IMG/VR virus record: IMGVR_UViG_2675903495_000009
Direction: 5' to 3' (one strand)
Source of the DNA: a virus
Taxonomy: Duplodnaviria; Heunggongvirae; Uroviricota; Caudoviricetes
DNA length: 8,656 bases
The translations under genes and the position numbers were made by a program. This document shows positions 1 to 8,656 of this stretch, one piece after another (position 1 is the first letter of the stretch; the number at the start of each line of letters is the position of its first letter). The notes under the pieces are model-generated. The model worked only from the letters and a program-made list of their open reading frames with translations, made no database searches and was not told the origin of the DNA.

Positions 1-22
1 ATATCTCCCCGGCAGCCTTCAG

Positions 23-93
23 GGAAAAATATCATCAGATGGCTGCTTAAAAAAAGAACAAATGGTAGTGTCCGCTATTGCCAGTACACCTCA
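23..93. repeat. Left arm of a perfect 71-bp inverted repeat (partner 8586..8656)
   Basis: Plus 23..93 is identical to the reverse complement of 8586..8656 by direct comparison. The match runs to the right window edge, so the repeat may be longer. Overlaps the 3' end of the CDS 47..235. Confidence 0.8.
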
Positions 94-235
94 GGGTATA
101 AGGGGTTATGGCCACCGGACTACCAAACGGCTGCCAGCCCTCTTTCAGTTTATGTGTCAGCTTTTCCGCAAGATCTGACGGCGGCGCCGCCCTGACAACA
201 TCATAGTGTTTAAATGCCATGGTTCTTTCCACCAT
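47..235 (-). CDS. Small prophage late-region protein, DUF1737-like (recalled family)
   Basis: ORF track 62 aa. The second ATG at 220 (MAFKHYDVVRAAPPSDLAEKLTHKLKEGWQPFGSPV...) has a GGTGGA Shine-Dalgarno 7 nt upstream and is the likelier start. Resembles small proteins found just upstream of holin genes in lambdoid prophages. The last ~15 codons lie inside the inverted repeat, so the C-terminus may be a recombination product. Confidence 0.5.
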   Translation of the reverse strand: MVERTMAFKHYDVVRAAPPSDLAEKLTHKLKEGWQPFGSPVAITPYTLRCTGNSGHYHLFFF

Positions 236-413
236 CTGAAAAATAATTCTTTAAAATACCTGACATGTAATACAGAAAAAACACAAAACCATACCTTAAA
301 TAAAAACCTGATTATCAAGCAGATATGCATGGATAAACTACAAGACGAGATATAAACCACCCTGCATTTAAATAAACAATAAACAACATCAGAAAAATAA
401 TTCTGCTCTATGG

Positions 414-440
414 TTTACATTCAAAAATATCATTTATACT
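414..440 (+). promoter_or_regulatory. Candidate sigma70 promoter (TTTACA-N15-TATACT) for ORF 481..816
   Basis: -35-like TTTACA at 414..419 and -10-like TATACT at 435..440. The 15-nt spacer is short, and the region is AT-rich where such matches arise by chance. Confidence 0.2.
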
Positions 441-480
441 TTTCAGAACATCACCAGCAAGGCATAAACAAGGAAACTAA

Positions 481-816
481 ATGAAGTGGATTGTGATTGA
501 TACAGTTATCCAGCCATCATGCGGAATATCTTTTTCAGTCATATGGAGTAAAATAAAATTAATAATCTGGTATCAATCGGATGCTTTCTTACCTCCTGAA
601 AGTATATTTACACTGACTCACACAGGCATCATGCTCAATAACAAAGTGCTACCTGTAACCATTTACAACGTAGTACCATTCAATAAAACATTCTGGAATT
701 CAATCAAAAATAGCCAGGAATGCCCTACAAATACAGATAACGTATTGAATGAATGCTTTAATAACCGTTGCACTCTGCAAATATGTCCTTATGGACTAAA
801 ACAACAAAGTCCATAA
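481..816 (+). CDS. Hypothetical protein (111 aa, 5 Cys) in AT-rich cargo island, opposite strand to the phage genes
   Basis: ATG preceded by AAGGAA 6 nt upstream. A 111-codon open frame in roughly 33% GC DNA is unlikely by chance. 6 of 13 Ile codons are ATA. No recognisable domain. Confidence 0.35.
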
Positions 817-840
817 GGAGTTTACTCACATCTGACAAAA

Positions 841-872
841 TCAATATAAACAGCCCCTCCGGAGAGGGGCTG
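841..872 (-). terminator. Rho-independent terminator candidate (minus-strand orientation)
   Basis: Perfect 9-bp stem cagcccctc/gaggggctg with loop cgga at 851..872. On the minus strand it is followed by UUUAUAUU (plus 841..850). No U-tract on the plus side. Confidence 0.45.
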
Positions 873-1212
873 GAGAGTGGCGCTATGTGCCATTGCATGG
901 TGCCGGGTGCCTCCCGGTGAATTCAGTACCAGCACCTGAATCCGCGATTATCCCATATACCTACTCGCTGATTGCCCCTCCGCACAGGGGGATTCACCAT
1001 GCCAGTTTCTTTTAACAAACTCCCCGCAAACCAGACAACAGTCAACCGCCTGAATTGTGAAGTATTTAAAAATTTCTCCCGCTAACTGATACCCGGCTAA
1101 CAGTCTGGCGTTTTCTTTTTCAGCAACGGGAAAGCAACAACCACCACACCCGCCACCAGCACACCGTCAGCCAGCACTTTTTACCGTAACAGGTGATAAT
1201 CCAGATATGTAT

Positions 1213-1566
1213 CTACCCCAGATGAGTAATCCGAAGTTCATCCATACCACAGGTCCTGGCTATTCTGTTGTACTCCTGAACAAGAGCAAATAATTCTGAA
1301 TTAGCAACCATGAACTCATCGCAAACCCTCTGTATAGCATCACTATTCAGAATAATAACGTCTCTTCCCGAAAGACGATCAGGAGTACAGAACAAAACTG
1401 TCAAACGGCTGAAGGCCTTTGCTCGTGCTGCATTGACTATATCAATACGCTGCCTAAGGATGAAACACCCCGACGCCTCATCAATATTCACTCTACCCAC
1501 ACCATATGAATGATAAATATTTAATGCTGAAAAAACCATTAGACCGTATAACAAACACTCAATCAA
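1213..1566 (-). CDS. Hypothetical protein (about 108 aa from ATG at 1539), rich in rare Arg/Ile codons
   Basis: ORF track 117 aa from a TTG; first ATG at 1539 (MVFSALNIYHSYGVG...). 8 of 11 Arg codons are AGA/AGG/CGA/CGG and 3 of 10 Ile codons are ATA, matching the three tRNAs immediately upstream. No recognisable family and no obvious Shine-Dalgarno. Confidence 0.4.
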   Translation of the reverse strand: MIECLLYGLMVFSALNIYHSYGVGRVNIDEASGCFILRQRIDIVNAARAKAFSRLTVLFCTPDRLSGRDVIILNSDAIQRVCDEFMVANSELFALVQEYNRIARTCGMDELRITHLG

Positions 1567-1676
1567 TACTTAACAGAACTTTTATTTTTGACAAACATAA
1601 AATATTTTCAACAATATCCTGAGCCAGGTATATTTCAGTATAAGGCTCTGCCGGAAGGAATCTGGAAGAATGAATA

Positions 1677-1753
1677 TGGCGCGCTGTACTGGATTCGAAC
1701 CAGTGACCGATTGCTTAGAAGGCAATTGCTCTGTCCGGCTGAGCTAACAACGC
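1677..1753 (-). tRNA. argO: tRNA-Arg (anticodon UCU)
   Basis: Cloverleaf read by hand: acceptor GCGTTGT/ACAGCGC, anticodon loop CUUCUAA, T-loop GGTTCGAATCC, 3' discriminator G + CCA encoded. Symbol given by positional analogy to the ileZ-argN-argO trio of Stx phages; uncertain. Confidence 0.85.
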
Positions 1754-1766
1754 ATGATGCAGATAA

Positions 1767-1843
1767 TGGACCGCCATCGGGGACTTGAACCCCGCGCAGC
1801 CAGCTTCGAAGGCTGGCGCTCTTTCCTGATGAGCTAATGGCGG
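1767..1843 (-). tRNA. argN: tRNA-Arg (anticodon UCG)
   Basis: Acceptor CCGCCAT/ATGGCGG, anticodon stem-loop CCAGC-CUUCGAA-GCUGG, T-arm CGGGG-TTCAAGT-CCCCG, CCA encoded. The 5' C is unusual, so the 5' end may be off by 1 nt. Symbol by positional analogy; uncertain. Confidence 0.8.
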
Positions 1844-1850
1844 TATGTGA

Positions 1851-1926
1851 TGGTGGCCCTTGCTGGATTTGAACCAGCGACCTGGCGATTATGAGTCGCT
1901 CGCTCTCACCACTGAGCTAAAGGGCC
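1851..1926 (-). tRNA. ileZ: tRNA with CAU anticodon, near-identical to E. coli tRNA-Ile2 (lysidine, reads AUA)
   Basis: GGCCCTTTAGCTCAGTGGTGAGAGCGAGCGACTCATAATCGCCAGGTCGCTGGTTCAAATCCAGCAAGGGCCACCA differs at only a few positions from ileX as I recall it. Ile2 versus Met cannot be settled from sequence alone. Confidence 0.85.
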
Positions 1927-1966
1927 GGGAGCCGCATAATAACGACGCGTAATTAATTCTTCAATA

Positions 1967-3034
1967 TCATCCGTTCTGGCTGACTAAATCCTGTACTTCC
2001 CGAACCGTCTGCTCAAAACGTTCAGTCTCCAGCTCAACGCCAATTGCACGACGCCCGAGCGCCAGTGCCGCTTTCACTGTCGAACCCAACCCCATGAAAA
2101 AATCTGCAATCAGGTCACCCGGACGACTGCTAGCGCTGATTATCTGCTGCAGCATTTCTGCCGGTTTTTCGCACGGATGTTTCCCGGGATAGAACTGCAC
2201 CGGTTTATGCGTCCACACATCGGTATACGGCACCTGCACCGTCACGCCAAAATACCGCCGCAGATGTTTATATTCACTCAGCAGCTCCGCATACTGCCGG
2301 TTCAGTGAGGTATACGTATCCACCAGCTGGTGGTGGAGCTTTTCCAGTTCACCACGCCGATGCTTCTCTTCTGCCACCCGGGCAAACAGCGCCTGTAATT
2401 TCAGATAATCGCTTTCATTCGGCAACTGCCACTGACCGGCACTGAACCAGTGCGACACCATGTTTTTCTTTCCTGTGGCATCTGCAATCTGTTTTGCCGT
2501 TATCCCCAGGGCAGCTCGCGCATCACGAAAGTAAGAAATCAGCGGGGCCATCACATNNNNNNNNNNNNNNNNNNNNNNNNNNNNNNNNNNNNNNNNNNNN
2601 NNNNNNNNNNNNNNNNNNNNNNNNNNNNNNNNNNNNNNNNNNNNNNNNNNNNNNNNNNNNNNNNNNNNNNNNNNNNNNNNNNNNNNNNNNNNNNNNNNNN
2701 NNNNNNNNNNNNNNNNNNNNNNNNNNNNNNNNNNNNNNNNNNNNNNNNNNNNNNNNNNNNNNNNNNNNNNNNNNNNNNNNNNNNNNNNNNNNNNNNNNNN
2801 NNNNNNNNNNNNNNNNGGTTTCAGCACCCGCCAGAACTGCGCCAGACACTGGTCCAGCCACTTCAGGTAATCATCGTCGCCCTTCCACTGGTTATCCCAG
2901 CCCTCAGGCTTCACTTTAAAGTACGGCGGGTCCGTGACTATCAGGTCAACAGAATTTTCGGGTAACGACCGGATAAATTCCAGGCAGTCGGCGTTGATTA
3001 ACTCACAACTGGATATTTTTACAGTATTAAGCAT
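1967..3034 (-). CDS. DNA methyltransferase (N6-adenine/N4-cytosine, beta class), phage-type
   Basis: 355 aa. N-terminal VTDPPYF (catalytic motif IV, DPPY) and C-terminal FFMGLGST (AdoMet-binding motif I, FxGxG) in the order typical of beta-class MTases. The middle (2557..2816) is masked. No adjacent restriction endonuclease, so apparently orphan. Confidence 0.9.
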   Translation of the reverse strand: MLNTVKISSCELINADCLEFIRSLPENSVDLIVTDPPYFKVKPEGWDNQWKGDDDYLKWLDQCLAQFWRVLKXXXXXXXXXXXXXXXXXXXXXXXXXXXXXXXXXXXXXXXXXXXXXXXXXXXXXXXXXXXXXXXXXXXXXXXXXXXXXXXXXXXXXXXXVMAPLISYFRDARAALGITAKQIADATGKKNMVSHWFSAGQWQLPNESDYLKLQALFARVAEEKHRRGELEKLHHQLVDTYTSLNRQYAELLSEYKHLRRYFGVTVQVPYTDVWTHKPVQFYPGKHPCEKPAEMLQQIISASSRPGDLIADFFMGLGSTVKAALALGRRAIGVELETERFEQTVREVQDLVSQNG

Positions 3035-3128
3035 GGATCATTAAGCCTGTCTCTGATAGGCTCATTCTGCTTTTGCGCAAAGCAGTGGGCCTGAGGTTTG
3101 CTTGTGAACCCAACGCATGAGCAGATGG

Positions 3129-3155
3129 CTGGTGGGTGCCCCTAACACCCACCAG
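3129..3155. other. Stable 10-bp perfect hairpin without U-tract between the small late ORF and the methylase gene
   Basis: ctggtgggtg-cccctaa-cacccaccag. Possible processing or attenuation element; function unknown. Confidence 0.3.
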
Positions 3156-3170
3156 CCGCCCATTTACCAC

Positions 3171-3198
3171 AAATAAAAAAGCCTTCACTGCGGAAGGC
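3171..3198 (-). terminator. Rho-independent terminator candidate overlapping the stop of CDS 3185..3382
   Basis: Minus-strand gccttc-cgcagt-gaaggc hairpin (plus 3181..3198) followed by UUUUUUAUUU (plus 3171..3180). Confidence 0.5.
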
Positions 3199-3382
3199 GT
3201 CTGTAACAACCGAACTGATAGTCTGCCAGACCCGCCATAACCAGCTGGGTCAGTATTAACTGGCAGCGTTCGCGTGAAAGGTAAGTATTCTGCGCTATCT
3301 CCCCGACTGTCGCCGGTTCGGTAACGCTTAATTCATTAAACACCACTCTGGCGGTTTCTGTCATATCCTGCTGTTTTAGCAT
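3185..3382 (-). CDS. Small hypothetical protein (65 aa), possible winged-helix/HTH DNA-binding protein; first gene after PR'/tR'
   Basis: MLKQQDMTETARVVFNELSVTEPATVGEIAQNTYLSRERCQLILTQLVMAGL... with a ggaaaaggaaaag Shine-Dalgarno region upstream. The helix-turn-helix-like segment TVGEIAQNTYLSRERCQLIL is judged by eye. Confidence 0.5.
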   Translation of the reverse strand: MLKQQDMTETARVVFNELSVTEPATVGEIAQNTYLSRERCQLILTQLVMAGLADYQFGCYRRLPQ

Positions 3383-3499
3383 GTCTTTTCCTTTTCCGGT
3401 TAACGTGACACACCAATAACTCTTGTCGAAAAAGCCAGCAAGCTGAAAGACAGGTATTCACCGCCACCAGCGCGTTTACTGTACTGACGCGATTTCAGT

Positions 3500-3526
3500 C
3501 ATAAAAAACCCGCTCGGCGGCGGGTT
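3500..3526 (-). terminator. tR'-like intrinsic terminator of the short PR' transcript
   Basis: Minus-strand acccgc-cgccga-gcgggu hairpin followed by UUUUUUAU, about 40-65 nt downstream of the PR' -10. Confidence 0.65.
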
Positions 3527-3559
3527 GTAGAAACTCTTCTAACGTCAGGCATAAAACGC

Positions 3560-3601
3560 CCATCGTTATGACGAATTTACCACAGATTCCGGAAAAATCA
3601 A
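3560..3601 (-). promoter_or_regulatory. Lambda-type late promoter PR' with qut and pause-inducing element
   Basis: On the minus strand, immediately after the Q2 stop: TTGATT (-35, plus 3596..3601), 16-nt spacer, TAAATT (-10, plus 3574..3579), then cgtcat-AACGATGGG. This matches the lambda PR' arrangement TAAATT-N6-AACGATGGG as I recall it. Confidence 0.7.
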
Positions 3602-3606
3602 CCTTG

Positions 3607-4354
3607 TTACCTAGTTACCTTTTTTAACTGCCGCTCAGCCCATGCTTCTTCAATATCAAACCGGGTCACCAGCGCATCATAAAATTTCTTAACTGTTTTT
3701 TCCCATGACGCGCGTGTTATCTGGTTTGTCACCTCGCATATAGCATTAAATGCCTCCGTTGATGGTAGTCTTTCATAGCCACGACCACCANNNNNNNNNN
3801 NNNNNNNNNNNNNNNNNNNNNNNNNNNNNNNNNNNNNNNNNNNNNNNNNNNNNNNNNNNNNNNNNNNNNNNNNNNNNNNNNNNNNNNNNNNNNNNNNNNN
3901 NNNNNNNNNNNNNNNNNNNNNNNNNNNNNNNNNNNNNNNNNNNNNNNNNNNNNNNNNNNNNNNNNNNNNNNNNNNNNNNNNNNNNNNNNNNNNNNNNNNN
4001 NNNNNNNNNNNNNNNNNNNNNNNNNNNNNNNNNNNNNNNNNNNNNNNNNNNNNNNNNNNNNNNNNNNNNNNCTACCGGTTTTATTTCTGCCGGAAGTTTT
4101 CTCAACGCCGCCACACGATCGCACCGACTGAGTGCATAATCTGCCAGTAATTCTGTTGCCCGCGCCCTGTCATTCATACTGATGCCCATTTTCCCCAGGA
4201 ACGCAGAAAACCCCATCTCAGCCCGATTCTGTGTCATGCCCTGCGCGGCCATCACATCAGTGATACTCAGCGCATCTTTTGACGTTGAGGCCGATGCATC
4301 GGTCAGGCAAGGGGATTTTGGGGAGTAGTATTTCGGTAAATCTTCCAGTTTCAT
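3607..4354 (-). CDS. Q: Late antiterminator Q, lambda-Q family (copy 2, adjacent to PR')
   Basis: N-terminus MKLEDLPKYYSPKSP...TDVMAAQGMTQNRAEMG resembles lambda Q (MRLESVAKFHSPKSP...TDVMAAMGMAQSQAGFG). C-terminal frame ...ASWEKTVKKFYDALVTRFDIEEAWAERQLKKVTR* resembles the lambda Q C-terminus. The interior 3791..4071 is masked. The span is 748 nt, not a multiple of 3, and about 38 codons longer than copy 1, so integrity is unverified. Confidence 0.7.
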
Positions 4355-4430
4355 TTTTTGACCTGCTCTTCATGCATTATGGGGTAAATCTTCACCCCCA
4401 GACGTCCACCAGATACTGGCTGACCACGAA
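4072..4430. repeat. Direct repeat, copy 2 of the rusA-3'/Q-5' module (partner 5153..5511, offset 1081 bp, about 92% identity by eye)
   Basis: Base-by-base comparison shows scattered substitutions only, so these are diverged copies rather than an assembly duplicate. Confidence 0.85.
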
Positions 4431-4574
4431 NNNNNNNNNNNNNNNNNNNNNNNNNNNNNNNNNNNNNNNNNNNNNNNNNNNNNNNNNNNNNNNNNNNNNN
4501 NNNNNNNNNNNNNNNNNNNNNNNNNNNNNNNNNNNCACCGTCGGCGGATAAGGTAAAATAAACTCATGGCGCAT
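4351..4574 (-). pseudogene. rusA-like remnant (second copy): N-terminal and C-terminal segments but too short and out of frame
   Basis: N-terminus MRHEFILPYPPTV (RusA-like LPxPP start) and C-terminus ...RGQPVSGGRLGVKIYPIMHEEQVKK* (cf copy 1 ...RAQPVSGGRLGVKIYPIMLEGQVKK*). Only 224 nt span start to stop, including the 105-nt mask, versus about 360 nt for full RusA. Its TGA overlaps the Q2 ATG (ATGA). Depends on the mask length being true. Confidence 0.4.
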
Positions 4575-4816
4575 CAGCGCAGCACCTCCTGCACCAGTTT
4601 TTCAAACTTTCCGACTCTGGTTTCCAGCTCTGCCACACAGTCCACCAGCTCATCTACTGCTTTCTGTGCGCGATGCTTCGCCTGCATCAGTTCCCGAAGC
4701 GCGGGTACCATATCTTTACGGATAGCGTCTTTTGTTATGCCCGTTTTTTCGAGTTGTTCAGCATGACGCAGCATTTCCTGCGCGTGTTTACGCAATTGTT
4801 CAGGGGTAAAAGTCAT
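4574..4816 (-). CDS. Small hypothetical protein (80 aa from ATG at 4816), predicted helical and charged
   Basis: MTFTPEQLRKHAQEMLRHAEQLEKTG...AELETRVGKFEKLVQEVLR. The N-terminus resembles that of CDS 7868..8212. Its start overlaps the 3' end of Q1 by 17 nt. Confidence 0.45.
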   Translation of the reverse strand: MTFTPEQLRKHAQEMLRHAEQLEKTGITKDAIRKDMVPALRELMQAKHRAQKAVDELVDCVAELETRVGKFEKLVQEVLR

Positions 4817-5435
4817 TGTCTGGTTGTTCAAAAGAAACGCTCCATCTTACTGCTGTCAGTTCGTTTATTACTGTATCTGCGCGGATTGCCGGGCNNNNNN
4901 NNNNNNNNNNNNNNNNNNNNNNNNNNNNNNNNNNNNNNNNNNNNNNNNNNNNNNNNNNNNNNNNNNNNNNNNNNNNNNNNNNNNNNNNNNNNNNNNNNNN
5001 NNNNNNNNNNNNNNNNNNNNNNNNNNNNNNNNNNNNNNNNNNNNNNNNNNNNNNNNNNNNNNNNNNNNNNNNNNNNNNNNNNNNNNNNNNNNNNNNNNNN
5101 NNNNNNNNNNNNNNNNNNNNNNNNNNNNNNNNNNNNNNNNNNNNNNNNNNNNCTGCCGGTTTTATTTCTGCCGGGAGTTTTCTTAACGCCGCCACGCGAT
5201 CACACCGACTGAGTGCATATTCTGTCAGCAATTCTGTTGCCCGCTCTCTGTCATTCATACTAATGCCCATTTTCCCAAGGAACGCAGAAACCCCCATCTC
5301 AGCCCGATTCTGTGTCATGCCCTGCGCGGCCATCACATCAGTGATACTCAGCGCATCTTTCGACGTTGAGGCCGATGCATCAGTCAGGCCGGGGGATTTT
5401 GGGGAGTAGTATTTCGGTAAATCTTCCAGTTTCAT
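4800..5435 (-). CDS. Q: Late antiterminator Q, lambda-Q family (copy 1) with C-terminal extension
   Basis: 211 aa, in frame across the 258-nt mask. N-terminus about 95% identical to copy 2. The C-terminus ...IRADTVINELTAVRWSVSFEQPDNDFYP* runs about 16 aa past the position where lambda Q ends (...NILNAVTR*). Its ATG overlaps the rusA stop (ATGA). No PR'-like promoter follows it. Confidence 0.75.
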   Translation of the reverse strand: MKLEDLPKYYSPKSPGLTDASASTSKDALSITDVMAAQGMTQNRAEMGVSAFLGKMGISMNDRERATELLTEYALSRCDRVAALRKLPAEIKPAXXXXXXXXXXXXXXXXXXXXXXXXXXXXXXXXXXXXXXXXXXXXXXXXXXXXXXXXXXXXXXXXXXXXXXXXXXXXXXXXXXXXXXXPAIRADTVINELTAVRWSVSFEQPDNDFYP

Positions 5436-5511
5436 TTTTTGACCTGCCCTTCAAGCATTATGGGATAAATCTTCACCCCCAGACGTCCACCAGATACTGG
5501 CTGAGCACGAA
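5153..5511. repeat. Direct repeat, copy 1 of the rusA-3'/Q-5' module (partner 4072..4430)
   Basis: See partner entry. Confidence 0.85.
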
Positions 5512-5713
5512 CGATATTGATTTCATCAAACTGCTCATCGTCCATTAGCAACCCCGCATGCGTCAGCGCATCCAGCGGCGCTTTCAGAATATTGTCCAGG
5601 TCACGGCGGCGCTTATCCGGTGGTTCTGCAATAATTTTTATTGCCAACCTTCCGGACAGGCTTAATTTCAGCCGCTGCTGGCGAACAATAAGCGCCACTG
5701 CCCGGCGATAACG
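5432..5713 (-). CDS. rusA: Holliday-junction resolvase RusA (visible C-terminal 93 aa; N-terminus inside mask 5714..5939)
   Basis: ...EPPDKRRRDLDNILKAPLDALTHAGLLMDDEQFDEINIVRAQPVSGGRLGVKIYPIMLEGQVKK* matches the RusA core (DLP12 RusA ...[31 protein letters not shown]... as recalled). Stop is translationally coupled to Q1. Confidence 0.85.
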   Translation of the reverse strand, partial: RYRRAVALIVRQQRLKLSLSGRLAIKIIAEPPDKRRRDLDNILKAPLDALTHAGLLMDDEQFDEINIVRAQPVSGGRLGVKIYPIMLEGQVKK

Positions 5714-5939
5714 NNNNNNNNNNNNNNNNNNNNNNNNNNNNNNNNNNNNNNNNNNNNNNNNNNNNNNNNNNNNNNNNNNNNNNNNNNNNNNNNNNNNNNN
5801 NNNNNNNNNNNNNNNNNNNNNNNNNNNNNNNNNNNNNNNNNNNNNNNNNNNNNNNNNNNNNNNNNNNNNNNNNNNNNNNNNNNNNNNNNNNNNNNNNNNN
5901 NNNNNNNNNNNNNNNNNNNNNNNNNNNNNNNNNNNNNNN

Positions 5940-6609
5940 ACAAATCATCAGCCTTTGTTCCCATCCCTCCCAGTCCATGACCAATGATGTGATGCGGATC
6001 ATCTGCCTGATTGCCACACGTCATGCATTTCTGCGTTTTTACCCAGCGCGTGTATACAGGCATCTCTTCCCGTTGTGATTTCTGGCGCTGGAGATACTGA
6101 GCCGGTGACTCCGGATCAACGGCAATGCTGACCACCGTCTTTTCCTGTGGTGGGTTCTGTTGCTGGTGGACGTGAGGCAGTAACGCAATATTTTTTGTGC
6201 GCTGCTTCAGTATGCTGGTGGCTGTCTGCTCTCCCGGTATGATGTCGCTTTCACTGTACACAGAGCGAATTTTTTCCGCACGCAACCCCAGCGAACGACG
6301 TAATACCGCTTCCGGTAGCGCGTCCGCCACCTGATTGCGGACCGCCCACCAGGATAATTCAGCCAGAGATAATTCACGCTCCTGCGTACCGCTTATTGCG
6401 TGACCGATGACGTCAATCATCCATGCTGACAGGTTTTGATGAGCAAGTTGCTCGAGTGATTCGGATGTCTGGTCACGCAGCTGGTTGTCGCAGTGCCAGC
6501 ACAACACCATTGCGCCGGTACCATAACGGTGAATGACGGTTTCGCTGTGATGATAATCGCCGTGTGGCCACTGGCAGGATTTAATATGGCGCAACAGCCA
6601 GTCAGACAA
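5940..6609 (-). CDS. Prophage protein, DUF968/YdfU-like (recalled family), Cys/His-rich; both ends inside masks
   Basis: Visible 223 aa with CQWPHGDYHH...CWHCDNQ near the N-terminal side and CMTCGNQADDPHHIIGHGLGG near the C-terminal side, suggesting zinc-binding or HNH-like motifs. Gene order hok - short ORF - this gene - Q parallels hokD-rem-ydfU-quuQ in the K-12 Qin prophage. The track's TTG start at 6609 is probably not the true start. Confidence 0.5.
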
Positions 6610-6906
6610 TGCANNNNNNNNNNNNNNNNNNNNNNNNNNNNNNNNNNNNNNNNNNNNNNNNNNNNNNNNNNNNNNNNNNNNNNNNNNNNNNNNNNNNNNN
6701 NNNNNNNNNNNNNNNNNNNNNNNNNNNNNNNNNNNNNNNNNNNNNNNNNNNNNNNNNNNNNNNNNNNNNNNNNNNNNNNNNNNNNNNNNNNNNNNNNNNN
6801 NNNNNNNNNNNNNNNNNNNNNNNNNNNNNNNNNNACCTCCAGATCCGTTGCTGGAATGTGCGGGACGGACGCGTTGGCCGTTCGGAGTAAGGGAGCCTGA
6901 CGGAGA

Positions 6907-7191: not shown

Positions 7192-7516
7192 CAGAATCCT
7201 TCCAGATAAATAGCACTCCCCTGTTCGGGGTCCATCCCTCTTCTCCCTGCGCGCTACTTAAGTATTNNNNNNNNNNNNNNNNNNNNNNNNNNNNNNNNNN
7301 NNNNNNNNNNNNNNNNNNNNNNNNNNNNNNNNNNNNNNNNNNNNNNNNNNNNNNNNNNNNNNNNNNNNNNNNNNNNNNNNNNNNNNNNNNNNNNNNNNNN
7401 NNNNNNNNNNNNNNNNNNNNNNNNNNNNNNNNNNNNNNNNNNNNNNNNNNNNNNNNNNNNNNNNNNNNNNNNNNNNNNNNNNNNNNNNNNNNNNNNNNNN
7501 NNNNNNNNNNNNNNNN

Positions 7517-7579
7517 CACTATGACGGTTAAACAGATGACGATCAGGGCGATTAACATCGCCTTTTGCTGCTTCATAGC
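7517..7579 (-). CDS. hokD: Hok-family type I toxin, HokD/RelF-like (visible N-terminal 20 codons; rest inside mask 7267..7516)
   Basis: MKQQKAMLIALIVICLTVIV matches the HokD/RelF N-terminus as I recall it (MKQQKAMLIALIVICLTVIVTALVTRKDLCEV...). AAGGAG Shine-Dalgarno 9 nt upstream. Expected length about 50 aa, so the stop should fall near 7430 inside the mask. Confidence 0.8.
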
Positions 7580-8386: not shown

Positions 8387-8617
8387 TTAACCCGCAGTGC
8401 TTTCAACTGATGAGGGGAACAAAATCTTTTCATCAAACCCTGCATTCATATCATGAACAGCAACACACCAATCCATCGACGAACGATTATCAAGAGCCTC
8501 CATGATTTCATCCATGCGGCGTAGGTCATACAGGTAAATGCTTTTATCGCCAATGGTGTAAAAGCCAATTTTTTTCGGTGATGGATGAGGTGTACTGGCA
8601 ATAGCGGACACTACCAT
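8387..8617 (-). CDS. Hypothetical protein (76 aa); first 10 codons lie in the right arm of the inverted repeat
   Basis: MVVSAIASTPHPSPKKIGFYTIGDKSIYLYDLRRMDEIMEALDNRSSMDWCVAVHDMNAGFDEKILFPSSVESTAG. No clear Shine-Dalgarno. An in-frame TAA four codons upstream rules out extension beyond the window. Confidence 0.35.
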   Translation of the reverse strand: MVVSAIASTPHPSPKKIGFYTIGDKSIYLYDLRRMDEIMEALDNRSSMDWCVAVHDMNAGFDEKILFPSSVESTAG

Positions 8618-8656
8618 TTGTTCTTTTTTTAAGCAGCCATCTGATGATATTTTTCC
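8586..8656. repeat. Right arm of the perfect 71-bp inverted repeat (partner 23..93)
   Basis: See partner entry; the match reaches the window edge. Confidence 0.8.

Follow-up and report, generated by a model that had tools for sequence, protein, structure and literature searches.

A prophage cargo slot between tRNA genes and lysis genes is probably a mosaic of iraL, an STnc100-family sRNA, a tciB remnant and one small uncharacterised gene

The window analysed in the current study is a stretch of 8,656 nucleotides from a tailed-phage record (IMGVR_UViG_2675903495_000009). An original prediction, made from the sequence alone, had described a low-GC cargo island there, with two convergent ORFs lying between three tRNA genes and a DUF1737-like gene on the lysis side. 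Both ORFs, the three upstream tRNA genes, the DUF1737-like gene and an AAGGAA motif ahead of position 481 were all present. The features of the slot and its borders, in window coordinates, are the following:

47..235, minus strand: truncated DUF1737-domain gene (Pfam DUF1737, E 1.5e-15)
435..480, plus strand: iraL promoter-proximal region, with TATACT at 435-440 (putative -10-like element), predicted transcription start at 448 and AAGGAA at 470-475
481..816, plus strand: iraL, encoding an IraM-family anti-adaptor of RssB (111 aa) and oriented convergently to the phage late genes
841..872, minus strand: intrinsic terminator of STnc100, stem-loop 872..851, then TTTATATTGA at 850..841
842..1031, minus strand: STnc100-family prophage sRNA (Rfam RF02076, cmscan)
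1097..1177, minus strand: remnant of a gene for a DUF3927 / TciB-like small membrane protein, 26 aa here and 43 aa in relatives
1176..1177: point at which 51 bp have been deleted in frame, as compared with L001, mEp460 and CFT073
1213..1491, minus strand: ORF92, gene for a 92-aa protein, GTG start, phrog_2873, occupant of the stx-equivalent position
1677..1753, minus strand: tRNA-Arg (TCT), ARAGORN and Rfam
1767..1843, minus strand: tRNA-Arg (TCG), ARAGORN and Rfam
1851..1926, minus strand: tRNA with CAT anticodon (tRNA-Ile2 type, ileZ-like), Met(CAT) according to ARAGORN, Rfam tRNA 72.5 bits

A gene for the antiterminator Q (Pfam Antiterm, E 8e-16) lies upstream of the tRNA genes. The identical CAT tRNA gene is labelled tRNA-Ile by RefSeq in CFT073 and in two of the loci compared with the window, L001 and L010. 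The tRNA-Arg (TCG) gene is intact in the window and in CFT073, but the annotations of L001 and EC958 list just two tRNAs. At the other border, the 3′ end of the DUF1737 gene enters one arm (23-93) of an inverted repeat, the second arm of which is at the opposite end of the window (8586-8656); the repeat could be a genuine rearrangement or an artefact of assembly. Homology of the DUF1737 region to L001 and L003 ends at about position 93. The GC content of the slot is 39% overall, but the proposed low-GC island proved to be patchy: the regions 200-800 and 1400-1700 are AT-rich (29–35% and 33–37% GC, respectively), while 800-1300 has 47–52% GC. A plus-strand ORF of 42 aa (887..1015), annotated by PGAP as a pseudogene in relatives, was judged to be spurious, having no family match and lying antisense to STnc100.

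The original prediction assigned neither of the two convergent ORFs to a recognised family. For ORF 481..816 this did not hold, as its product is identical in 110 of 111 residues to c1429 of CFT073, a gene that bears the name iraL (PMC12890032). The protein also matched NCBIfam NF007393 over residues 1-110 (162 bits, cutoff 121, E 4.7e-48) and the PDB entry 8twd_A (IraM) over residues 1-78 (E 6.3e-31). IraL of CFT073 has been shown to be an RssB anti-adaptor that stabilises RpoS in log phase (Hryckowian et al. 2014, PMC4045071). In that study iraL was defined by at least 95% identity to the CFT073 gene, together with a conserved promoter and leader. Besides the near-identical protein, the window has a leader in which 31 of 32 positions agree, and the flanking DNA is 99.3% identical. 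The only substitution is S74, which is L in CFT073. RssB binding and RpoS stabilisation, demonstrated by experiment with the 99%-identical CFT073 protein, would be expected of the present allele. The prophage context is also the same (Q, tRNAs, DUF3927, iraL, DUF1737, holin), except that the DUF3927 gene beside iraL carries the 51-bp deletion in the window.

The 5′ end of the CFT073 iraL mRNA was mapped by 5′-RACE as ACATCACCAGCAAGGCATAAACAAGGAAACCA (PMC4045071), and it was the alignment of this sequence to positions 448-479 that gave the 31 matches. Transcription in the window would accordingly begin at 448, with TATACT at 435-440 as a putative -10-like element (our own reading) and the Shine-Dalgarno sequence AAGGAA 5 nt ahead of the ATG at 481. 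The gene has its own σ70-type promoter and is directed against the late operon; for these two reasons it would be expressed in the lysogen. K-12 IraM, a PhoP-regulated RssB anti-adaptor (PDB 8twd), belongs to the same family (NF007393), can be aligned over the full length and is 61% identical. However, IraL is a paralog and not an ortholog of this protein, and K-12 iraM is located elsewhere, beside e14.

Downstream of iraL on the opposite strand, cmscan detected a full-length STnc100 sRNA that covers the model from position 1 to 206 of 206 and scores 132.4 bits (gathering score 47; E 2.3e-30), although its single-sequence fold z-score was just -1.55. The terminator scan gave a 9-pair stem that includes 7 G-C pairs and closes a 4-nt loop. 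A terminator hairpin between the two ORFs had been predicted at 841..872, and a hairpin is indeed found at 851-872. The T-tract (841-850) is on the minus strand, whereas the plus-strand sequence after the stem is GAGAGTGG, with no T-tract; the hairpin therefore ends a minus-strand RNA, that of STnc100, and does not serve both ORFs.

Expression of other STnc100-family copies was reported by RNA-seq and Northern analysis (PMC5331693). EcOnc27/sRNA103 is cited as a member in connection with expression and Hfq binding of the family (PMC12711010), and both EcOnc27/sRNA103 and PasD were reported to be expressed (PMC12370729, PMC12711010, PMC5331693, bioRxiv 10.64898/2026.05.13.724894). The window copy resembles these two sRNAs in its full-length match to the model, its 3′ intrinsic terminator and its location just 3′ of a late-region cargo gene. 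In contrast to EcOnc27/sRNA103, which lies 3′ of stx2B, the predicted sRNA of the window follows DUF3927 and ORF92. In L010 a family member comes immediately 3′ of stx2B, and L001, L003 and L008 each have one behind another cargo gene. From position, STnc100 would mark where the preceding cargo gene ends, whichever gene that is, and could act as a conserved joint for cargo exchange.

The next feature is a peptide of 26 aa that matched Pfam PF13064 (DUF3927) at profile positions 29-53 only (E 1.7e-13), while the intact 43-aa ortholog in L001 covers positions 7-53 (E 1.7e-27). The remnant also matches phrog_1470 (TciB-like). Alignment showed that 51 bp were deleted between short AGTG repeats with the loss of 17 DUF3927 codons, and the BLAST comparison with CFT073 has the same gap. 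Among the best 25 matches in E. coli, all span 1481–1482 bp against the 1431 bp of the query. TciB of phage P1 covers the whole DUF3927 profile, whereas the window peptide covers the C-terminal half and has no tciA partner. In JLK-2012, tciA-tciB occupy the same slot, from Q and the tRNAs to DUF1737. Neither STnc100 nor the DUF3927 remnant had been listed in the original prediction.

The minus-strand ORF had been placed at 1213..1566 (ORF117, from a TTG start). It was found to be a gene whose frame is kept in relatives, but whose conserved start is the GTG at 1491, giving 92 aa. The N-terminal extension (residues 1-25 of ORF117) was rejected as it is not conserved, and neither L007 nor L008 has an earlier start after the upstream stop. 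Homologs of ORF92 are found in L007 (3977..4255, annotated; 63% identity) and L008 (3955..4233; 60%). In the window and these two loci the gene is 279 nt long each time and shares both its GTG start and its stop, with no indels and a DNA identity of 72–76%. By codon position the differences number 19/19/40, with the excess at the third, and dN/dS is 0.25–0.26 compared with 0.8–1.25 in control frames.

ORF92 is also not without a family, since it matched phrog_2873 over residues 1-91 (E 1.1e-57, 193.8 bits). The family is small and enterobacterial (32 clusters). An exhaustive profile search enlarged it by a few relatives of 94–106 aa; a 1364-aa repeat protein (P0036) in this search was spurious. 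Searching phages by tblastn with ORF117 gave mEp460 only. Related hypothetical proteins of about 92 aa (WP_001017777.1 and WP_000662184.1) are 34–63% identical to ORF92, the 34% value being that of plasmid homologs, which are annotated as CDSs. No member has a described function, and a literature search found no paper citing either accession.

The silence of PGAP, which does not call ORF92 in the CFT073/ST131 lineage and leaves it without annotation in more than 1,000 E. coli genomes, would be explained if ORF 1213..1566 were a chance open frame in a non-coding spacer. In keeping with this, no CDS is annotated beneath it in any high-identity E. coli match, the start is not ATG, the Shine-Dalgarno sequence ahead of GTG 1491 is weak (GGGTAGA, compared with AGGAG in L007) and the rare-codon profile is like that of out-of-frame DNA. 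Such a frame would not be expected to stay ungapped in three lineages with a dN/dS well below that of the other frames, nor to have annotated plasmid homologs, distant relatives and a phrog_2873 match, and this explanation is very unlikely. ORF92 is best regarded as a real gene under purifying selection, and its omission as a clear gap in the annotation of E. coli lineages of clinical importance.

The original prediction had taken the two ORFs together as the strongest candidate for an undescribed module serving as a toxin, in defence or in anti-defence, with its translation tied to the rare-codon tRNAs next to it. Both genes are genuine and lie in a cargo hot spot that is already known, both the ATA and the rare Arg codons (AGA, AGG, CGA, CGG) are present, and ORF92 has no known function. 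However, one of the two is the characterised iraL, and each occurs without the other: iraL without ORF92 in 640R1, ORF92 without iraL in mEp460, L007 and L008, and an iraL-like gene together with stx in L010. As iraL and ORF92 are apart in five loci, they do not form a module. A PADLOC search with the products of ORF92, iraL and DUF3927 gave no match.

The codon counts behind the proposed coupling were largely reproduced (AGA3, AGG3, CGA1, CGG1 and CGT3 for Arg in ORF117; ATA for 6 of 13 Ile codons in iraL), except that ORF117 has 11 Ile codons and not 10. The usage did not differ from a composition null: ATA fractions of 6/13 in iraL and 3/9 in the minus-strand gene compare with expected values of 0.43 and 0.33, and 7/10 rare Arg codons in the latter gene with 0.72 (P(≥observed) 0.51–0.70 across tests). 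Other frames of the same DNA have similar or higher rare-codon fractions. K-12 iraM, with no phage tRNAs nearby, has the same ATA use (8/18), iraL contains no rare Arg codons at all, and stx2A, for comparison, uses ATA for 15 of 20 Ile codons. Thus, the rare codons reflect AT-rich composition with no specific adaptation to the neighbouring tRNAs, and the apparent coupling vanishes under composition control; a single coupled module is extremely improbable. The rare codons are nevertheless present, and the phage tRNAs could help translation even without enrichment.

The claim that the slot corresponds to that of stx was borne out by L010, an O157 Stx2c prophage (strain 180-PT54), which has the tRNAs Ile-Arg-Arg, stx2A, stx2B, STnc100, a convergent iraL-like gene, an esterase and a holin. 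The flanks, order and orientation are those of the window, and the iraL-like product has 74% amino acid identity. The cargos differ and have no sequence relation (stx2A and stx2B in L010, ORF92 and the tciB remnant here). The two slots are positionally equivalent, with ORF92 and DUF3927 located exactly where stx2AB lies. The tRNAs and STnc100 can be seen as constant joints around swappable cargo (stx2AB, tciAB or ORF92), and as a landmark for cargo genes in lambdoid prophages.

In CFT073 the order is Q, tRNA Ile-Arg-Arg, a gap, DUF3927, iraL (convergent), DUF1737, holin and lysozyme; BLAST gave 99.3% identity for window positions 91..1178 and 97.2% for 1175..1959. The whole slot was found in 863 genomes; 1183 contain the ORF92 region, and about 1419 have iraL with an identity of ≥95%. 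We therefore regard positions 91-1959 as the version of the CFT073 potB prophage of a cargo hot spot between Q with the tRNAs and the lysis genes, forming a mosaic in which four modules, most of them known, are independent of one another, and not a two-gene system (probability roughly 0.85). What is already known of iraL, STnc100 and tciB accounts for nearly all of this orphan-looking AT-rich slot, and only ORF92 is uncharacterised.

Searches for an ORF92 function in Pfam, NCBIfam, PADLOC and by PDB sequence profile gave nothing meaningful; a weak PADLOC match to HEC-06 (E 0.0016), obtained with a plasmid homolog, was not significant. The AlphaFold2 model is an alpha-hairpin (pLDDT 81), and no membrane segment was predicted. 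The gene is co-directional with the late genes and, like stx, would be read from the Q-dependent late transcript. Its product may perhaps act by binding another protein.

One tentative role for ORF92 is that of a late-operon accessory working with TciA/TciB-type envelope proteins by the lysis cassette, for example in the envelope, in colicin or tellurite tolerance, or in lysis timing. In the lineage of the window and CFT073, DUF3927/TciB follows ORF92 after 35 nt, and downstream of Q in L017 an ORF92-like gene, TciA, DUF3927, holins and endolysin are arranged in this order on one strand, the TciA being TerB-like and 86% identical to TciA of P1. This role is nevertheless rather unlikely, since neither DUF3927 nor TciA is annotated next to the copies in L007, L008 and plasmids, no membrane segment is predicted in ORF92, and in the window an intact ORF92 accompanies a truncated tciB. 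In addition, the Tci functions themselves are assigned in the P1 record by homology only. Identity of ORF92 with P1 TciC was ruled out, as TciC has 35 aa and follows tciB, while ORF92 has 92 aa and precedes tciA/tciB in L017.

Alternatively, ORF92 might be a small regulator that is expressed in the lysogen and directed at the host, where it would bind a protein or regulator, with a logic like that of IraL or of small anti-activators. On IncF plasmids of ETEC it is a stand-alone gene next to a K88-like fimbrial operon that has a PapB-type regulator, and in L008 the gene immediately upstream of it encodes an AraC-family regulator. The modelled alpha-hairpin would be typical of small binding proteins, and the AT-rich upstream region contains a promoter-like minus-strand site (1611..1584). 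On the other hand, these context associations are few and could reflect hitch-hiking, promoter matches are about as frequent as expected by chance (6 sites against 4.5) and the fold is non-diagnostic, so that a host-directed role is possible but somewhat doubtful. The AraC-family neighbour in L008 raised the idea of a PerC/Pch-like or ANR-like regulator, which found no sequence support. It is a less likely, speculative option that ORF92 is a new lysogenic-conversion factor (host-protein inhibitor, anti-defence protein, envelope or lysis modulator) made from the Q-dependent late transcript. The plasmid homologs stand alone, outside any phage late operon, which makes expression in the lysogen with a host-directed role just as plausible as late expression.

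The region between the phage tRNAs and the DUF1737-domain ORF is a known prophage cargo mosaic of iraL, the STnc100 sRNA and a tciB remnant, and it also contains ORF92, a small gene that is real but uncharacterised, at the stx-equivalent position. The remaining interest of the region lies in ORF92 and its annotation gap. Phage genes in the window are on the minus strand, in the order two Q-family antiterminator paralogs, DNA methylase, three tRNAs, cargo slot and DUF1737-domain ORF; no holin or lysis genes were found inside the window.

Features of the slot and its flanks
47..235: DUF1737-domain ORF
481..816, plus strand: iraL (CFT073 c1429 identity, NCBIfam and PDB matches)
842..1031, minus strand: STnc100 sRNA (RF02076), full-length Rfam match at 132 bits (gathering score 47)
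851-872: terminator hairpin, T-tract on the minus strand
1097..1177: DUF3927/TciB-like remnant, 26 aa, still matching the C-terminal half of the Pfam profile
1213..1491, minus strand: ORF92, 92 aa, GTG start at 1491, phrog_2873
1677-1753: tRNA-Arg-TCT
1767-1843: tRNA-Arg-TCG, the middle of the three tRNAs
1851-1926: tRNA with anticodon CAT, labelled Met by ARAGORN; RefSeq gives tRNA-Ile for the identical gene in several genomes
1967..3034: DNA methylase gene, after the Q-family antiterminators and before the tRNAs

The original prediction described an AT-rich island with two convergent orphan ORFs. The sequence does contain the two ORFs, the hairpin (851-872) and the AAGGAA ribosome-binding site (470-475). 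The low GC content holds at 200-800 (29-35%) and 1400-1700 (33-37%), but not at 800-1300 (47-52%), giving a patchy region with 39% overall.

The plus-strand ORF 481..816 had been regarded as belonging to no recognised family. It is 110/111 identical to c1429 of the potB prophage of uropathogenic E. coli CFT073, whose DNA matches window 91-1959 at 97-99% identity, and c1429 is iraL (PMC12890032). Hundreds of genomes carry the ORF in RefSeq under the name "anti-adapter protein IraM"; it scored above the NCBIfam cutoff (162 vs 121 bits), matched the solved IraM chain 8twd_A (E 6e-31) and showed 61% identity to K-12 IraM. The iraL mRNA 5' end mapped by 5'-RACE (ACATCACCAGCAAGGCATAAACAAGGAAACCA; PMC4045071) agrees with window 448-479 at 31/32 positions. 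The CFT073 match, together with the family and leader matches, therefore identifies a characterised gene and not an orphan. According to Hryckowian et al. 2014 (PMC4045071), IraL of CFT073 is a paralog of IraM, 58.9% identical to it; the gene has a sigma70-type promoter of its own, and its product keeps RpoS stable during log phase. The AT-rich stretch upstream of iraL contains a 21-nt direct repeat (230-250 and 384-404; CACCATCTGAAAAATAATTCT / CAACATCAGAAAAATAATTCT; 90% identical, spacing 154 nt). The iraL promoter has GGTTTA (412-417) as its -35 hexamer, which resembles a PhoP half-site.

The hairpin had been described as a terminator lying between the two ORFs. Since its T-tract is on the minus strand, it is the terminator of STnc100 and is not shared by both ORFs. 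STnc100 is an established family of prophage sRNAs. Its eleven copies in EDL933 are transcribed, one of them confirmed by Northern blot (PMC5331693), and a copy is located 75 nt behind stx2B (PMC12370729). The copy after stx2B overlaps the Hfq-binding EcOnc27/sRNA103 (PMC12711010), and PasD is related to STnc100 (bioRxiv 10.64898/2026.05.13.724894). STnc100 was also the part of the slot commonest in phage records, most of the matches listed spanning only query 607-939 (window 846-1178). We infer that cargo is exchanged at a joint formed by STnc100 and its terminator. Strain 07-4299 carries five head-to-tail STnc100 copies (2686-3665) directly 3' of an ORF92 homolog and a sixth (5425-5637) following a TolA-like gene; in phage 640R1 there are two (3603-3791 and 4067-4260) and no ORF92. 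A 42-aa ORF antisense to STnc100 (887..1015, plus strand) gave no family match, appears in relatives as a partial 'hypothetical protein' pseudogene (PGAP) and is probably a spurious call.

The predicted equivalence of the slot to the stx position was borne out by an O157 Stx2c prophage (strain 180-PT54), in which tRNAs Ile-Arg-Arg are followed by stx2A, stx2B, STnc100, a convergent iraL-like gene (74% identical), an esterase and a holin. By this gene order, stx replaces exactly ORF92 and DUF3927. The tRNAs, sRNA and iraL are constants flanking exchanged cargo, and JLK-2012 has tciA-tciB at the same position.

The predicted minus-strand ORF (1213..1566) is a genuine gene but a shorter one, starting at GTG 1491. 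The 279-nt frame with this start is kept without indels in three lineages (the window, a chromosomal relative and strain 07-4299), and no earlier start codon exists in the latter two. Its dN/dS was 0.25-0.26 in frame vs 0.8-1.25 in control frames, with differences of 19/19/40 by codon position; on this sequence comparison, ORF92 is under purifying selection. In the chromosomal relative, the slot holds a 63%-identical gene that is annotated as a 92-aa CDS, and the homolog in strain 07-4299 is intact and unannotated. PGAP annotates no CDS here in the high-identity matches of the CFT073/ST131-type lineage (strain 64, ST131 EC958 and CFT073), which is an annotation gap. ORF92 matched phrog_2873 (E 1e-57), with no matches in Pfam, NCBIfam, PADLOC or PDB sequence searches. 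A word-indexed search gave a small family confined to E. coli and Shigella, and an exhaustive profile search added a few more distant relatives of 94-106 aa. Chromosomal copies were found at 72-76% identity (blastn) and annotated plasmid proteins of E. coli at 34% (tblastn).

In relatives, the minus-strand ORF is separated from the sRNA by a DUF3927 gene of 43 aa (Pfam E 1.7e-27; phrog_1470, "TciB-like"). In the window it is shortened by a 51-bp in-frame deletion at 1176/1177, between AGTG repeats, that is shared by none of the best 25 E. coli matches and is also absent from CFT073. DUF3927 is a repeated neighbour of ORF92, and in a distant relative an ORF92-like gene is followed by TciA, TciB, holins and endolysin. 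In phage P1 (1116-2776), tciA-tciB-tciC likewise have tRNA genes on both sides, those for Asn and Thr upstream and tRNA-Ile2 CAT downstream, echoing the tRNA-tci association of lambdoid prophages.

The two ORFs do not form one module, as each occurs without the other: iraL alone in 640R1 and, with stx, in the Stx2c prophage, and ORF92 alone in mEp460, the chromosomal relative, strain 07-4299 and plasmids. Genome counts also differ (whole slot 863, ORF92 region 1183, iraL at at least 95% identity about 1419).

A match between rare codons in the cargo and the adjacent tRNAs had also been proposed. The codon counts were right overall, except that the longer minus-strand ORF has 11 Ile codons and not 10. 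Under a null that weights synonymous codons by the composition of the gene, ATA usage was 6/13 vs 0.43 expected in iraL and 3/9 vs 0.33 in ORF92, and the rare-Arg fraction 7/10 vs 0.72 (P(>=observed) 0.51-0.70). Rare-codon fractions in other frames of the same DNA, the comparison named in the original prediction itself, were similar or higher, leaving the coupling unsupported. The only Arg codon of iraL is CGT. K-12 iraM has ATA 8/18 with no phage tRNAs nearby, and ORF92 homologs in loci without tRNAs show comparable usage; stx2A, unlike the slot genes, has ATA 15/20. The phage tRNAs could still aid translation of the AT-rich iraL and ORF92. The window, CFT073 and the Stx2c phage all have an intact tRNA-Arg(TCG); its counterpart in strain 64 and ST131 EC958 is a diverged stretch with no tRNA annotation.

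The window ends (23-93 and 8586-8656) form a perfect 71-nt inverted repeat, whose right arm reaches the final base. Similarity between the DUF1737 gene and relatives breaks off near position 93, and the gene is thus fused at its 3' end to the beginning of ORF 8387..8617 (minus strand) in inverted copy; the repeat is either a true rearrangement junction or an assembly artefact. Masked N runs (about 2560-2850, 3800-4080, 4430-4530, 4900-5150, 5740-5950, 6610-6840 and 7280-7520) break most genes outside the slot, while 1-2500 is free of them. They partly cover both Q-family antiterminator ORFs (3773..4354 and 4800..5435, minus strand), tandem paralogs with near-identical N-termini (MKLEDLPKYYSPKSP...), that of 4800..5435 matching Pfam Antiterm (E 8e-16).
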